DNA of 53,508 nt from Escherichia coli (lineage in GTDB: Bacteria > Pseudomonadota > Gammaproteobacteria > Enterobacterales > Enterobacteriaceae). A program made the position numbers and the translations under genes. Below the pieces are notes generated by a model. It had not been told where the DNA came from and ran no database searches. It saw only the letters and a program-made list of their open reading frames with translations. The stretch lies in NCBI RefSeq assembly GCF_003334335.1, contig NZ_QOWQ01000033.1; one strand, 5' to 3'. How positions within the stretch are numbered: position 1 is the first letter of the stretch; every line of letters begins with the position of its first letter. Shown here in pieces: positions 1-25,536 of this stretch.

Positions 1-257
1 GCAGCCTGATTAAGGGACATGTGCTGCTCGATCACAGCTTTCACGACCTTAATACGCAACTCTGGATCAGCACTAACGCCTTTAGGTTTGGGAATTAAAC
101 CTTTTTCTCCATGTTTTTCATAGAGGGCAACCCATGTCCTGACCTGGGTTCGGGGGACACCAAAACGTGCCGAGATGATCCTGTAACCATCATCAGTTGT
201 GAAGTAGTGATTCACGACTTCAAGGCGCTTTTCAAAAGGGTATTTTGGCTTTGACAT
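1..257 (-). CDS. insJ: IS150 transposase OrfA (InsJ), N-terminal ~85 codons; C-terminus outside window
   Basis: ATG at 255-257 (minus); translation matches the InsJ helix-turn-helix N-terminus. Confidence 0.8.
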   Translation of the reverse strand, partial: MSKPKYPFEKRLEVVNHYFTTDDGYRIISARFGVPRTQVRTWVALYEKHGEKGLIPKPKGVSADPELRIKVVKAVIEQHMSLNQA

Positions 258-304
258 ATTAGGGGCTATTCCATTTCATCGTCCAACAAAATGGGTGCAG
301 TACA
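1..304 (-). mobile_element. IS150 left end (partial; rest of element lies beyond window start)
   Basis: Minus-strand ORF 1..257 translates to the IS150 OrfA/InsJ N-terminus (MSKPKYPFEKRLEVVNHYFTTDDGYRIISARFGV...); element terminus TGTACTGCACCCATTTTGTTGGACG read on minus strand ends at 304. Recognition from memory, not a search. Confidence 0.8.
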
Positions 305-336
305 TACTCGTTGGAAATCAACACAGGAGGCTGGGA

Positions 337-489
337 ATGCCGCAGAAATATAGATTACTTTCTTTAATAGTGATTTGTTTCACGCTTTTATTTTTCACCT
401 GGATGATAAGAGATTCACTGTGTGAATTGCATATTAAACAGGAGAGTTATGAGCTGGCGGCGTTTTTAGCCTGCAAATTGAAAGAGTAA
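337..489 (+). CDS. hokA: Hok-family type I toxin (small membrane peptide, 50 aa)
   Basis: MPQKYRLLSLIVICFTLLFFTWMIRDSLCELHIKQESYELAAFLACKLKE; ATG at 337 within ORF 295..489; one hydrophobic helix typical of Hok/Gef. Confidence 0.8.
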   Translation: MPQKYRLLSLIVICFTLLFFTWMIRDSLCELHIKQESYELAAFLACKLKE

Positions 490-616
490 GAGTCTTCGGC
501 GGGAAATTATTCCCGCCTTACTTACGGCGTTGCGCATTCTCATTGCACCCAAATTTATTCTTCACAAAAATAATAATAGATTTTATTACGCGATCGATTA
601 TTTATTTCCTGAAAAC

Positions 617-648
617 AAATAAAAAAATCCCCGCCAAATGGCAGGGAT
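617..648 (-). terminator. rho-independent terminator of cspA
   Basis: Minus-strand hairpin ATCCCTGCC-ATTT-GGCGGGGAT followed by a T7 run, 28 bp after the cspA stop. Confidence 0.7.
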
Positions 649-675
649 CTTAGATTCTGTGCTTTTAAGCAGAGA

Positions 676-888
676 TTACAGGCTGGTTACGTTACCAGCT
701 GCCGGGCCTTTAGCGCCGCTTTCGATGGTGAAGGACACTTTCTGACCTTCGTCCAGAGATTTGTAACCATCGTTCTGGATAGCAGAGAAGTGTACGAACA
801 CATCTTTAGAGCCATCGTCAGGAGTGATGAAGCCGAAGCCTTTGTCAGCGTTGAACCATTTTACGATACCAGTCATTTTACCGGACAT
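676..888 (-). CDS. cspA: major cold shock protein CspA (70 aa)
   Basis: [70 protein letters not shown]; RNP1-like KGFGFI motif. Confidence 0.97.
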
Positions 889-1047
889 AGTGTATTACCT
901 TTAATAATTAAGTGTGCCTTTCGGCGATATGGCGTGCTTTACAGATTTTGAAGCGTTAAAGGAATGTGCACTACGAGGGGTATCAACGATAACTCTTGAA
1001 GGGACTTGCCTTACTACACTGCTTTAATGGTCTGTACGTCAAACCGT
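889..1047 (-). promoter_or_regulatory. cspA long 5' UTR (cold box / thermosensor leader, about 160 nt)
   Basis: Sequence between the promoter -10 and the cspA ATG on the minus strand; the long structured leader is established knowledge for cspA. 5' end inferred from promoter position. Confidence 0.6.
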
Positions 1048-1055
1048 TGATGTGC

Positions 1056-1110
1056 ATTAAGCCACGCATTGGCGGGTGATGCAACAATTATTTTTCATAT
1101 TTATGATTAA
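1056..1110 (-). promoter_or_regulatory. cspA promoter (-35 TTGCAT, 17 bp spacer, -10 CTTAAT) with AT-rich UP element upstream
   Basis: Minus-strand reading: TTGCAT cacccgccaatgcgtgg CTTAAT, preceded by AT-rich taatcataaatatgaaaaataattg. Confidence 0.65.
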
Positions 1111-1121
1111 TCGGTTGGAAA

Positions 1122-1143
1122 ACGGTCCTGTCATCAGGACCGT
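1122..1143 (-). terminator. hairpin downstream of yiaG (possible terminator)
   Basis: ACGGTCCTG-tcat-CAGGACCGT perfect 9 bp stem 25 bp after the yiaG stop; the trailing T-run is weak. Confidence 0.4.
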
Positions 1144-1168
1144 AAACAGCAATAAAGTGGATAAAAGT

Positions 1169-1459
1169 CTATTCCATCAACTGCTTACTTAATGCCGGGT
1201 TGGCTTGAATCAAACGCATCAATTTTAGTTCGGCACTTGAAGGCTTCACGCGTCTGGATTCCCATTCCTTTACCATGGCGACTGATACGCCCAAAACCCG
1301 GGCGAAATCATCGATTTTTAATCCTGTCCCTTTTCGTAACTGCTCAATTTCGGTACAGGACGTTGTTCTGTGCGTCAGGGTAATTTTCTGCGTTTCATCT
1401 TTAAAAACAATCTGTTCCAGGCTGCTCAACAGCTCATGCATTGGATCTTTATATTCCAT
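1169..1459 (-). CDS. yiaG: XRE-family HTH transcriptional regulator YiaG (96 aa)
   Basis: Full ORF; HTH segment LRKGTGLKIDDFARVLGVSVAMVKEWE. Confidence 0.9.
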   Translation of the reverse strand: MEYKDPMHELLSSLEQIVFKDETQKITLTHRTTSCTEIEQLRKGTGLKIDDFARVLGVSVAMVKEWESRRVKPSSAELKLMRLIQANPALSKQLME

Positions 1460-1892
1460 TGAAAACTCCTCAAATCACACTGCGGGATCGTGAATTGCAT
1501 CGAAGCTCATTAAGAATAGTCGGGAAAAGCAGACACAGCGGGGTGAAGTCAGGGCATGCTCTGGCTATGATTCGATTCAGCCTGTCATTTAGCGTGACTT
1601 ATAGCCACCTAACGATCTGATAAATGCCGATATATCTCTTACCACTCCTGTTTTGTAAAGATTTCGAAAATCTAACCTTCTGCGAAGGCGTAAATCTCTG
1701 GCTACAAAAAAGGCAACGGCACTATCATTTTTTAACAATGAAACAACAAATTAACCTTGTTTCATTTTCTCCATGATTTTACCAGGAAGATTACGTAGAA
1801 AGGGTATCCTGCAAGCCTGTCCTGGACTATCCTTGTCACGTCAGACACGCGTGTGTCGTTGTGCGCTTTTTTTGGGTGAAAGGAGTAAGAAA

Positions 1893-2603
1893 ATGGCGAC
1901 AGGAAAGTCCTGCTCTCGCTGGTTTGCGCCTCTTGCGGCGTTATTAATGGTAGTTAGCCTGAGTGGGTGTTTTGATAAAGAAGGCGATCAGCGTAAAGCG
2001 TTTATCGACTTCCTGCAGAATACAGTGATGCGTAGCGGTGAACGTCTACCAACCCTGACTGCCGATCAGAAAAAACAGTTTGGTCCTTTTGTCTCTGATT
2101 ACGCGATTCTGTATGGTTATTCTCAGCAGGTGAATCAGGCGATGGATTCCGGTCTGCGCCCGGTTGTAGACAGCGTTAACGCAATTCGCGTACCGCAGGA
2201 TTACGTTACGCAAAGCGGTCCGCTGCGTGAAATGAACGGTTCGCTGGGTGTGCTGGCGCAACAACTGCAAAATGCGAAGTTGCAGGCCGATGCTGCGCAC
2301 TCTGCGCTAAAACAGAGCGATGATTTGAAACCGGTCTTTGATCAGGCATTCACCAAAGTGGTAACGACGCCAGCTGATGCATTGCAACCGTTGATTCCGG
2401 CGGCACAAACTTTCACGCAACAACTGGTGATGGTTGGAGACTACATTGCTCAGCAAGGTACTCAGGTGAGCTTTGTCGCAAATGGCATCCAGTTCCCGAC
2501 TTCACAGCAGGCAAGTGAATATAACAAACTGATTGCGCCATTACCGGCACAGCATCAGGCGTTTAATCAGGCCTGGACTACAGCAGTTACTGCAACCCAA
2601 TAA
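1893..2603 (+). CDS. yiaF: lipoprotein YiaF (DUF3053)
   Basis: ATG at 1893 preceded by AGGAG; signal peptide plus lipobox LSGC; the ORF track's longer 1773 start is an upstream in-frame extension. Confidence 0.9.
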   Translation: MATGKSCSRWFAPLAALLMVVSLSGCFDKEGDQRKAFIDFLQNTVMRSGERLPTLTADQKKQFGPFVSDYAILYGYSQQVNQAMDSGLRPVVDSVNAIRVPQDYVTQSGPLREMNGSLGVLAQQLQNAKLQADAAHSALKQSDDLKPVFDQAFTKVVTTPADALQPLIPAAQTFTQQLVMVGDYIAQQGTQVSFVANGIQFPTSQQASEYNKLIAPLPAQHQAFNQAWTTAVTATQ

Positions 2604-2652
2604 AGAGTAAAAGCCCGAGCGATTATCGGGCTTTACTCTACGCAGTCGCGGC

Positions 2653-3627
2653 TTAGTCCGCGACGTGCGGATTCACACAGTTCTTCTCAACCTTTCCTTG
2701 TAACGCATCAATCAAATTATCCACGGCACAGGCGGCCATGCCATAACGCGTCTCATGGGTGGCAGATCCAATATGCGGTACTGCGACGACGTTGGCCATT
2801 GAGAGCAACGGCGAATCTACGGACAGTGGCTCTTGTTCGAAGACATCCAGCCCGGCAGCGTGAATTTCGCCTTTCTGCAATGCTGCGATCAGTGCATTTT
2901 CGTCAACCACCGGGCCACGTCCGGCATTAATGAAAATGGCGGAGGATTTCATTTTGGCGAATTGTTCTGCGCCAAACAGATGATGCGTCTCATCAGTTAA
3001 CGGCAGGATCAGGCAAACGAAATCTGACTCTTGTAACAGAGTATCCAAATCGCAGTAGCGGGCGTTGAAGCGTTCTTCTGCTTCTTTATGGTGGCGGCGC
3101 GCGTTATAGAGGATGGGCATGTTGAAGCCAAAGTGCGCACGTTGTGCCAGCGCCATGCCGATCCGTCCCATCCCGACAATGCCCAGTGTTTTATGGTGAA
3201 CGTCAGTGCCGTACCAGTCCGGGCCTATGCTCGCGGTCCATTCGCCTGCTTTTACCCGTTCTGCTACCTCCACAACCCGACGAGCGGTAGACAACACCAG
3301 CGCCATCAGCGTATCGGCGACGGTTTCTGTTAATACGGTTGGCGTGTGCATCAGCAGAATTTTTCGGGCGGTAAGCGCATCGACATCAAAATTGTCATAG
3401 CCGACGGAGATCGTTGATGTGGCACGCAGTTTCGGCATTTTTTCCAGCAATGCGGCATTTACATTCTCGTTTGAACCCAGTAAACCTTCAGCTTCGGCAA
3501 AAATTGCTGCATTTTGTTCGACGGTTTGTGGGCTGAGGTTTGCCACCTGGTGAACGGTGAAATGCTCTTGCAGGCGTTGCAGTAAATCATCAGGTAAGGC
3601 TTTGTAGAGGATAACGGACGGCTTCAT
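2653..3627 (-). CDS. ghrB: glyoxylate/hydroxypyruvate reductase B (2-ketogluconate reductase, D-2-hydroxyacid dehydrogenase family)
   Basis: [16 protein letters not shown]...; NAD-binding GxGxxG (GIVGMGRIG); ATG 12 bp inside the listed ORF. Confidence 0.92.
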
Positions 3628-3730
3628 GCTTCTCTCCATTCACTGATAAGGCGATCACCTTAGCCTGAAATATGATGAAGGAAAACTGAAGAATGCCAGG
3701 TGATTTCTGCATCACCTGGCATGAAAGGGA

Positions 3731-4390
3731 TTACAGCGGGCTTAAGGTAATTTCTACACGGCGGTTTTGCGCCTTACCTTCTGCGGTGCTGTTGCTGGCG
3801 ATTGGGTTAGCCGGGCCAAGGCCCTGAGTACGGATGCGGCTGGCGTCCACGCCCTGGGTGATCAACGCGCTGGCAACGGAATCCGCACGTTGCTGGGAGA
3901 GACGCATGTTCAGGTCGTGACCACCCGTGCTGTCGGTATAACCAATCACGTTAACCGCCGTTTTCGGATACTCTTTCAGTACCATTGCCACGCCGGTCAG
4001 GGTGTTAGCGCCCGCCGGTTTCAGGGTCGCGCTGCTGCTGTCGAAGGTCACATTGTTCGGCATATTGAGGATAATGTTATCCCCGCTGCGGGTTACGCTA
4101 ACACCAGTGCCGCGCATTTTGTCGCGCAGCTTCGCTTCCTGCACATCCATGTAATAACCAACGCCGCCGCCCAGAGCTGCGCCTGCTGCTGCGCCAATCA
4201 GCGCGCCTTTACCGCGATCTTTCTTCGAAGAAGAGAGCGCACCAATACCCGCGCCCACGAGAGAGCCCAGACCTGCGCCGATAGCAGATTTACCTGCTTC
4301 GCGTTCGCCGGTGTAAGGGTTAGTTGTGCAGCCAGATACCGCCAGAGCGCCACTCACTACGGCGGCAATAAGATAAACACGTTTCTTCAT
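3731..4390 (-). CDS. yiaD: OmpA-family peptidoglycan-associated outer membrane lipoprotein YiaD
   Basis: Signal peptide with lipobox (LAVSGC), Gly/Ala-rich linker, C-terminal OmpA-like domain (NRRVEITL). Confidence 0.92.
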   Translation of the reverse strand: MKKRVYLIAAVVSGALAVSGCTTNPYTGEREAGKSAIGAGLGSLVGAGIGALSSSKKDRGKGALIGAAAGAALGGGVGYYMDVQEAKLRDKMRGTGVSVTRSGDNIILNMPNNVTFDSSSATLKPAGANTLTGVAMVLKEYPKTAVNVIGYTDSTGGHDLNMRLSQQRADSVASALITQGVDASRIRTQGLGPANPIASNSTAEGKAQNRRVEITLSPL

Positions 4391-24783: not shown

Positions 24784-25536
24784 ATGGCCGTACTGGGATT
24801 GCAGGGGGTGCGGGGAGGCGTGGGGACAACAACCATCACCGCCGCATTAGCCTGGTCATTACAAATGTTGGGAGAAAATGTCCTGGTGGTCGATGCCTGC
24901 CCGGACAACTTGTTGCGCCTGTCATTTAATGTTGATTTTACCCACCGTCAGGGCTGGGCCAGAGCGATGCTGGATGGCCAGGACTGGCGTGACGCTGGGT
25001 TGCGCTACACCTCGCAGCTCGATTTGCTGCCTTTTGGTCAGTTATCCATTGAAGAACAAGAAAATCCACAGCACTGGCAAACCCGGCTGAGCGATATTTG
25101 CTCCGGCTTACAGCAACTAAAAGCCAGCGGGCGTTACCAGTGGATTTTAATCGACTTACCGCGTGATGCCTCGCAGATAACCCACCAGCTGCTGAGTTTG
25201 TGCGATCACTCGCTGGCAATCGTCAATGTGGATGCCAACTGCCATATCCGACTGCATCAGCAAGCGCTGCCGGATGGCGCACATATTTTGATTAATGACT
25301 TCCGTATTGGCAGTCAGGTTCAGGACGATATTTACCAGCTTTGGTTGCAAAGCCAGCGCCGATTACTGCCGATGCTCATTCATCGTGATGAAGCGATGGC
25401 TGAATGCCTGGCGGCTAAGCAACCAGTAGGTGAATATCGCAGTGATGCGCTGGCGGCTGAAGAGATACTGACGCTGGCGAACTGGTGCCTGTTGAACTAC
25501 TCCGGGCTGAAAACGCCAGTCGGGAGTGCATCATGA
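24784..25536 (+). CDS. bcsQ: cellulose biosynthesis protein BcsQ (MinD/ParA-like), uninterrupted 250-codon frame
   Basis: ATG at 24784, 12 bp after the bcsR stop; codon 6 (24799-24801) is TTG; P-loop-like GVRGGVGTTT; ATGA overlap with bcsA. Confidence 0.9.
   Translation: MAVLGLQGVRGGVGTTTITAALAWSLQMLGENVLVVDACPDNLLRLSFNVDFTHRQGWARAMLDGQDWRDAGLRYTSQLDLLPFGQLSIEEQENPQHWQTRLSDICSGLQQLKASGRYQWILIDLPRDASQITHQLLSLCDHSLAIVNVDANCHIRLHQQALPDGAHILINDFRIGSQVQDDIYQLWLQSQRRLLPMLIHRDEAMAECLAAKQPVGEYRSDALAAEEILTLANWCLLNYSGLKTPVGSAS

Follow-up and report, generated by a model that had tools for sequence, protein, structure and literature searches.

The beginning of the window (the whole stretch of Escherichia coli DNA analysed here, 53,508 nt of contig NZ_QOWQ01000033.1, assembly GCF_003334335.1) is very probably the downstream part of a hokA/mokA/sokA type I toxin–antitoxin locus that has been disassembled by the insertion sequence IS150, with hokA left silent and the IS not acting as an activator. 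As the sequence shows, hokA is left with no promoter within reach, mokA lacks its ribosome-binding site and start codon, and sokA lacks its 5' end and, on the putative assignment of its promoter, the −10 box as well. Since a toxin gene without its antitoxin is carried by so many genomes, we infer that hokA is silent: HokA would not be made, and its reading frame would persist as a silent, intact relic, passed on by vertical descent within a large E. coli lineage. The disruption itself is already known, having been published since 1999 and entered in the reference annotation. The hokA::IS150 allele of K-12 was reported by Pedersen & Gerdes (1999, Mol Microbiol 32:1090), as relayed in PMC11551753 and PMC12214031, the former describing sokA of MG1655 as disrupted by IS150 and the latter listing hokA, hokC and hokE as inactivated by insertion elements. 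For genome scans, the locus illustrates that an intact toxin ORF is not the same as a working toxin–antitoxin system; this one has lost its promoter, its coupling frame and its antitoxin.

The IS150–hokA junction and its uninterrupted counterpart

The left 304 bp of IS150 occupy positions 1–304 on the minus strand and are exactly identical to the annotated IS150 of MG1655. The start codon of insJ lies at 257–255, from where the minus strand (257 to 1) encodes the N-terminus of InsJ, with a weak match to the N-terminal region of IS3-family transposases, and transcription of insJ is directed away from hokA. The IS150 transposase, InsJ/InsK, is produced by programmed frameshifting. The left inverted repeat spans 274–304 (minus strand), and its terminus, TGTACTG(CACCC...), ends at 304 and is shared by the other IS150 copies examined; on the plus strand, positions 293–304 read GGGTGCAGTACA (...CAGTACA), the reverse complement of the IS150 left terminus TGTACTGCACCC. 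Both features by which this IS3-family element is recognised, the terminal repeat and the insJ start, lie inside the window. The remainder of the 1,443-bp element falls outside it, and the complete element is found in the identical locus of MG1655.

A gap of 32 bases (305–336) separates the IS end from the hokA ATG. The hokA ORF (337–489, plus strand) is intact, with 50 codons followed by TAA, the size of a Hok-family toxin (about 50 residues); its translation, MPQKYRLLSLIVICFTLLFFTWMIRDSLCELHIKQESYELAAFLACKLKE, is identical to the protein of uninterrupted alleles and matches the NCBIfam HokA equivalog NF007290 over its full length (1–50) with 129.7 bits, the cut-off being 89. The sequence-only reading had placed the IS150 end at 304 and the hokA start codon at 337, and both coordinates agree with direct reading and with the MG1655 annotation. 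Window positions 1–3937 are the reverse complement of MG1655, base for base over the compared stretch, and RefSeq annotates the locus in that strain with IS150 (3720633–3722075), insJ, insK and hokA, together with a mokA pseudogene that ends at the IS boundary and a 35-nt sokA pseudogene beyond IS150 (the features of the MG1655 hokA/mokA/sokA locus being b4455, b4647 and b4614). The K-12 locus carries the same allele as the window: the IS150 boundary coincides, mokA and sokA are likewise called as pseudogenes, and the two do not differ at this locus.

The layout of an undisturbed hokA can be read from other strains: the segment corresponding to 305–700 is present in 5,423 of 5,426 complete E. 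coli genomes, and in the IS-free strains L002 and L003 the hokA locus follows directly after glyS. In L002, the Rfam hok/sok leader RF01794 matches positions 2884–3035 (152 nt, 120 bits). Because this match ends on the hokA ATG, the hokA leader is 149 nt long, which bears out the earlier statement that a regulatory leader of about 150 bp lies 5' of hok in intact loci. In uninterrupted alleles, mokA starts at leader position +90 and runs for 70 codons, in frame into hokA. When the 369-nt wild-type transcript is folded, its 5' end, GGGUGCUUGAG (tac), is predicted to pair with CUCAUUGCACCC near the 3' end (z = −7.96); such 5'–3' closure by tac and fbi is typical of hok mRNAs. On the opposite strand, a relaxed promoter scan of the uninterrupted allele finds TTGATT-17-TAACCT (7/12 match), which we take to be the putative sokA promoter from its position and from the layout of the R1 locus. 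Intact alleles would then produce a hokA mRNA of about 365 nt that starts 149 nt upstream of hokA and is closed by tac–fbi pairing, and a SokA RNA, transcribed on the other strand from the putative promoter at about +106 to +134, which would cover the mokA ribosome-binding site.

Compared with this layout, the leader of the window allele is partly kept, partly displaced and partly lost. On its far side, the MG1655 IS150 is flanked by leader sequence up to +78 (...ATCAAAGT) with one T added, and on its near side the leader continues from +118 (TACTCG...); the 39 nt in between (GAGGCCCCTCTATGCATAGACACCATAAGGTTAGCCTCT, +79 to +117), which adjoined the left end of IS150, are absent. They carried the GAGG and ATG of mokA and, for sokA, the 5' end together with the −10 box of the putative promoter. 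Beyond the 1,443-bp IS150, outside the window, the promoter is kept along with leader nucleotides 1–78, and there MG1655 yields a partial RF01794 match to the 5' half of the leader (69 bits); within the window, no RF01794 match was obtained in 250–600 or in 1–3000, even at E ≤ 10. Next to hokA there remain the last 32 nt of the leader (+118 to +149; 305–336, plus strand), as delimited by comparison with L002 and L003 and by the RF01794 alignment. They hold mokA codons 11–20, in frame with hokA, and the hokA Shine–Dalgarno sequence AGGAGG at 325–330. On the minus strand, positions 316–321 carry an orphan TTGATT, the −35 hexamer of the putative sokA promoter (assigned from the relaxed scan of the uninterrupted allele), and the position of the −10 hexamer, TAACCT in the uninterrupted allele, is occupied by IS150 sequence. 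Downstream of the ORF, a 3' stem-loop of the hokA mRNA, GGCGGGAA-ATTA-TTCCCGCC (498–517, plus strand), appears in the predicted folds of the wild type and of the remnant alike, and an fbi-like 3' element, CTCATTGCACCC (539–550, plus strand), is the one that pairs with tac in the fold of the intact allele.

No regulatory module of the locus is therefore whole in the window. Only codons 11–20 (305–336) are left of a mok frame with its own Shine–Dalgarno sequence and start, and only the −35-like TTGATT (321–316) of a Sok antisense gene with its own promoter, sokA surviving otherwise as its 3' 35 nt, annotated as a pseudogene, beyond IS150. A structured RF01794 leader with tac–fbi pairing is likewise not found in the window: the fbi-like element is present, and its tac partner lies 1.5 kb away, beyond IS150 and outside the window. 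No intact mok/sok region lies between 304 and 337, where these codons, the orphan hexamer and the hokA Shine–Dalgarno sequence are located. The earlier view of an intact toxin ORF with displaced native regulation is thus largely right, given the full-length HokA match and the lack of an RF01794 match. Its picture of a leader replaced by IS150 holds less well, in that 32 nt are kept, the promoter and 78 nt displaced and 39 nt deleted.

Two neighbours lie on the minus strand. A 23-codon ORF annotated in RefSeq MG1655, ysaE (466–537, coordinates converted from MG1655), stands outside the toxin–antitoxin system and overlaps, in antisense, the final 24 nt of hokA and the region of its 3' stem-loop. 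Further on, a complete cspA mRNA with its thermoregulator (621–1048; RF01766, 500.8 bits) is convergent with hokA; in most other genomes, the gene bears the PGAP label 'cspE'.

Spread and origin of the allele

Four arrangements of the hokA leader were counted by separate junction searches in 5,426 complete E. coli genomes; the counts, which sum to 5,426 and may contain small overlaps or omissions, are of genomes and not of independent events. The leader is uninterrupted in 2,790 genomes, whereas the allele of the window, with the IS150 left end next to TACTCG, is present in 1,659, as judged by a 140-bp junction. A simple insertion co-directional with hokA, with the target duplication AAG at CAAAG^TGAGG (class 2), accounts for 883, and an insertion in the orientation of the window, with the duplication AAG and the 39 bp retained (class 3), for 94. 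A search for the far junction of the window allele gave 1,643 genomes out of the 5,426. Given that the same 140-bp junction recurs in so many genomes, it is real and not a product of chance, and, as its carriers include K-12 derivatives, E. coli B and ATCC 8739, the allele is old, vertically inherited and no laboratory accident.

Other insertions in or near such leaders were also seen. In strain UTME-10, an IS481-family element (L005, 3615–4661) has landed 10 bp before the hokA ATG; in strain VL7S7, IS1A sits inside IS150 (L006, 1479–2176); and in H218, a hok-like locus of a plasmid has the IS3-like ISKpn8 at the corresponding position. The K-12-type IS150/hokA junction is present in NZ_CP029371.1 ('strain C, cow's milk'; H52), and the hokA of 'E. 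coli C' has been used as an IS-free functional allele (bioRxiv 10.1101/2025.08.07.668861); NZ_CP029371.1 is probably a different strain of the same name.

With respect to origin, there is next to no chance that IS150 simply inserted here, duplicating 3 bp of target and removing nothing. Other strains do have simple insertions at this site, in both orientations and with the duplication AAG, and other IS150 copies at the hot spot show duplications of AAG, CCA, ACCC or AAC. The 3-bp (sometimes 4-bp) duplication of IS150 is nevertheless absent here: the flanks in MG1655, ...CAAAGTT and TACTCG..., have no trinucleotide in common (GTT versus TAC), so that the duplication suggested earlier as something to look for at the other IS150 end does not exist and the event was not a simple insertion. 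In addition, 39 bp present in the uninterrupted genomes are missing from the allele. A simple insertion with target duplication was rejected on these two grounds. Apart from the absent duplication, the IS150 copy of the window is typical.

The most economical origin, as far as the junction sequences tell, would be an insertion at the hot spot or beside it, after which the adjoining 39 bp were lost. IS150 would have entered the leader at, or 1–2 nt from, CAAAG^TGAGG, just 5' of the mokA Shine–Dalgarno sequence, with its left end toward hokA, and the adjacent 39 nt (+79 to +117) would subsequently have been lost. A class 3 insertion with a deletion alone was rejected as the origin because the far junctions differ, with CAAAGTT abutting the IS here and CAAAG abutting it in class 3. 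Extra bases occur at other junctions too. In two IS150 copies at hok hot spots (L004, 2058–2060; L010, 1125–1127), an additional TG stands between the target duplication and the IS150 left terminus, and the K-12-type copy has an additional T at the right terminus; these bases suggest imprecise end processing or variant IS150 ends.

Expression of hokA

If hokA were transcribed from a promoter inside the end of IS150, or from a hybrid one formed at the junction, the toxin would be rewired rather than silenced, a reading that we consider very unlikely. A perfect −35-like hexamer, TTGACA, is read directly at 251–256 (plus strand) and faces hokA, a strong AGGAGG is retained 6 nt from the hokA ATG, and IS150 has been able to drive neighbouring DNA in evolution experiments (PMC11101190). 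However, the hexamers 16–18 nt past TTGACA (ATTTCA, TTTCAT and TTCATC) all lack the essential A at position 2, and TTTCAT, the one 17 nt downstream, is no acceptable −10. A consensus promoter scan of the plus strand over 1–1000 returned no promoter-like site, and a relaxed scan facing hokA gave weak candidates only, the best reaching 8/12 (TTCAAA-18-CATATT), with no consensus −10; over the whole IS150 on the hokA strand, the consensus scan found a single 9/12 site, about 1.3 kb upstream of hokA. It is, moreover, the left end that faces hokA, the one upstream of insJ, which reads away from hokA. The known outward promoter of IS150 is located at its 3' end and has a modest effect (uz-Zaman et al., PMC11101190), and this right end points away from hokA, toward the sokA remnant. 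Fuqua and Wagner took the terminal 150 bp from the left and from the right of IS150 as parents for the very reason that, in reporter assays of both strands, neither gave any detectable promoter activity (PMC12095673). Outward transcription from IS150 into hokA, put forward by the sequence-only reading, is thus unsupported for the left end: direct reading, both scans and the reporter result revealed no functional promoter facing hokA. A transcript from the IS end would also have to do without the mokA start required for coupled translation, which is deleted, and with a hokA Shine–Dalgarno sequence and AUG that are predicted to be paired. Finally, with sokA destroyed, true expression should be toxic, yet the allele is carried by 1,659 genomes.

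The native promoter might instead still feed hokA by read-through of the 1.44-kb IS150, antisense to insJK, and, in favour of this, the promoter region is indeed intact beyond the element, as are leader nucleotides 1–78. Such read-through is extremely unlikely: 45–80 nt inside the right end of IS150, a 15-bp stem with a T-run forms a terminator-like structure in the same direction, and any RNA that reached hokA would still lack the ribosome-binding site and start codon of mokA. Long untranslated antisense RNA is, furthermore, a typical target of Rho termination, which the approximately 1.4 kb of such RNA would be expected to meet. At that end of the element, the 3' end of the MG1655 IS150 (L001, 5077–5140, outside the window) points into the 35-nt sokA remnant and the terminator-like GGTGGGGCTTTTCTCT, and a chimeric IS150–'sokA RNA is conceivable in the MG1655-type allele.

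The preferred reading, a silent hokA, may be set beside what has been reported for hok genes. In plasmid R1, mutation of the mok start codon is among the loss-of-function mutations that rescue cells from hok without Sok (PMC9841398), and over-expression of the HokA coding sequence is reported to be toxic (bioRxiv 10.1101/2025.08.07.668861). Minimum-free-energy prediction for the remnant places the hokA Shine–Dalgarno sequence and AUG in a helix of about 16 bp with the 3' part of the ORF, and the same helix is predicted in the wild-type fold. With the ORF intact and the AGGAGG perfect, some expression could persist or could occur under certain conditions. Within the IS end, a GTG at 295 in frame with hokA opens a 64-codon hybrid ORF, with no ribosome-binding site ahead of it. 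In the long-term evolution experiment, 'proto-genes' likewise have an IS150 end directly upstream of an ORF; there, the promoter lies at the IS150 3' end, whereas in the window the 5' (left) end faces hokA and no promoter was detected (PMC11101190).

IS150 in hok leaders and relatives of the locus

In hokA, hokB, hokC and plasmid hok alike, IS150 lies on the 5' side of the mok GAGG at a distance of 0–1 nt, and about 49% of complete E. coli genomes have IS150 in the hokA leader. Its junction is present at hokB in 575 genomes (example, L010), at a hokC-type gene in 276 genomes (L009) and at the R1-type plasmid hok in 954 PLSDB plasmids (L008); in each of these, the element is co-directional with hok and flanked by a 3–4-bp duplication. 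IS150 insertions at hokB/sokB were reportedly also obtained in Lenski's long-term lines by Schneider et al. in 2000 and Woods et al. in 2006. De novo IS150 insertions at position 16,972 were described by Finn et al. in clones AN-2K-1, AN-2K-4 and FL-2K-4, along with insertions at hokE and mokB (PMC5419217), and the published position falls on the hokC site of REL606 (record positions 16,971–16,974). Furthermore, sokE::IS150 is known from more than 400 isolates (PMC11551753), and hok/sok homologues have been recognised as hot spots of mobile-element insertion in E. coli and Klebsiella pneumoniae (bioRxiv 10.1101/527788). The IS150 hot spot is an example of an insertion site that shapes a gene family across a species, a pattern that has been noted before.

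The preference of IS150 for hok leaders is precise to the nucleotide. Targeting through inverted-repeat similarity has been described for some IS3-family elements. Similarity between the hok leaders and the IS150 inverted repeats was rejected as the basis of targeting, in that no local alignment beat the shuffled controls; the best one, the 9-nt CACGAGGCA, concerned the plasmid hok target only (p ~0.07, uncorrected). It is tentatively proposed, though rather doubtful, that IS150 recognises a specific feature of the hok leader, that about half of the genomes have been hit at hokA in this way, and that the allele of the window is a rearranged derivative of such a hit. If this held as targeting at the level of the transposase, not as survivorship, the nucleotide-level mechanism alone would be new. 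A second type I toxin–antitoxin pair occurs elsewhere in the window, ldrD (35 aa; 20682–20789, plus strand) with the antisense RNA rdlD (20570–20633, minus strand), and an evolution experiment with hok-locus insertions also yielded IS150 next to ldr loci (PMC5419217).

Among known systems, the uninterrupted hokA shares with hok/sok (parB) of plasmid R1, the reference type I toxin–antitoxin system, the RF01794 leader, the tac–fbi pairing, an upstream mok and a homologously placed antisense promoter. In contrast to R1, the mok frame of hokA is in frame with hok, and the window allele is without the mok start, sok and the promoter. The other IS150 insertions in hok leaders involve the same element and the same target region as the window allele; they keep the mok start and have 3–4-bp duplications, whereas the window allele has lost 39 bp and has no duplication.

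Over 53 kb, the window differs from MG1655 by 13 substitutions and by having one 168-bp repeat unit fewer. The missing unit belongs to the RtT repeats between proK and dppA (window positions about 12303–12410). The window also has fewer units than every best-matching genome listed, all of which matched in two pieces that span 5,169 bp against 5,001 bp in the query, and the missing unit could be either a real difference in copy number or a repeat collapsed in the source assembly. At the start of bcsQ (24784–24843, plus strand), the window has Leu at codon 6 (MAVLGLQG...) and the gene is intact, whereas MG1655 has a stop at this codon (MAVLG*QG). Judged by these sequence differences, the source of the window is not MG1655 but a close relative of K-12 in which bcsQ is intact.
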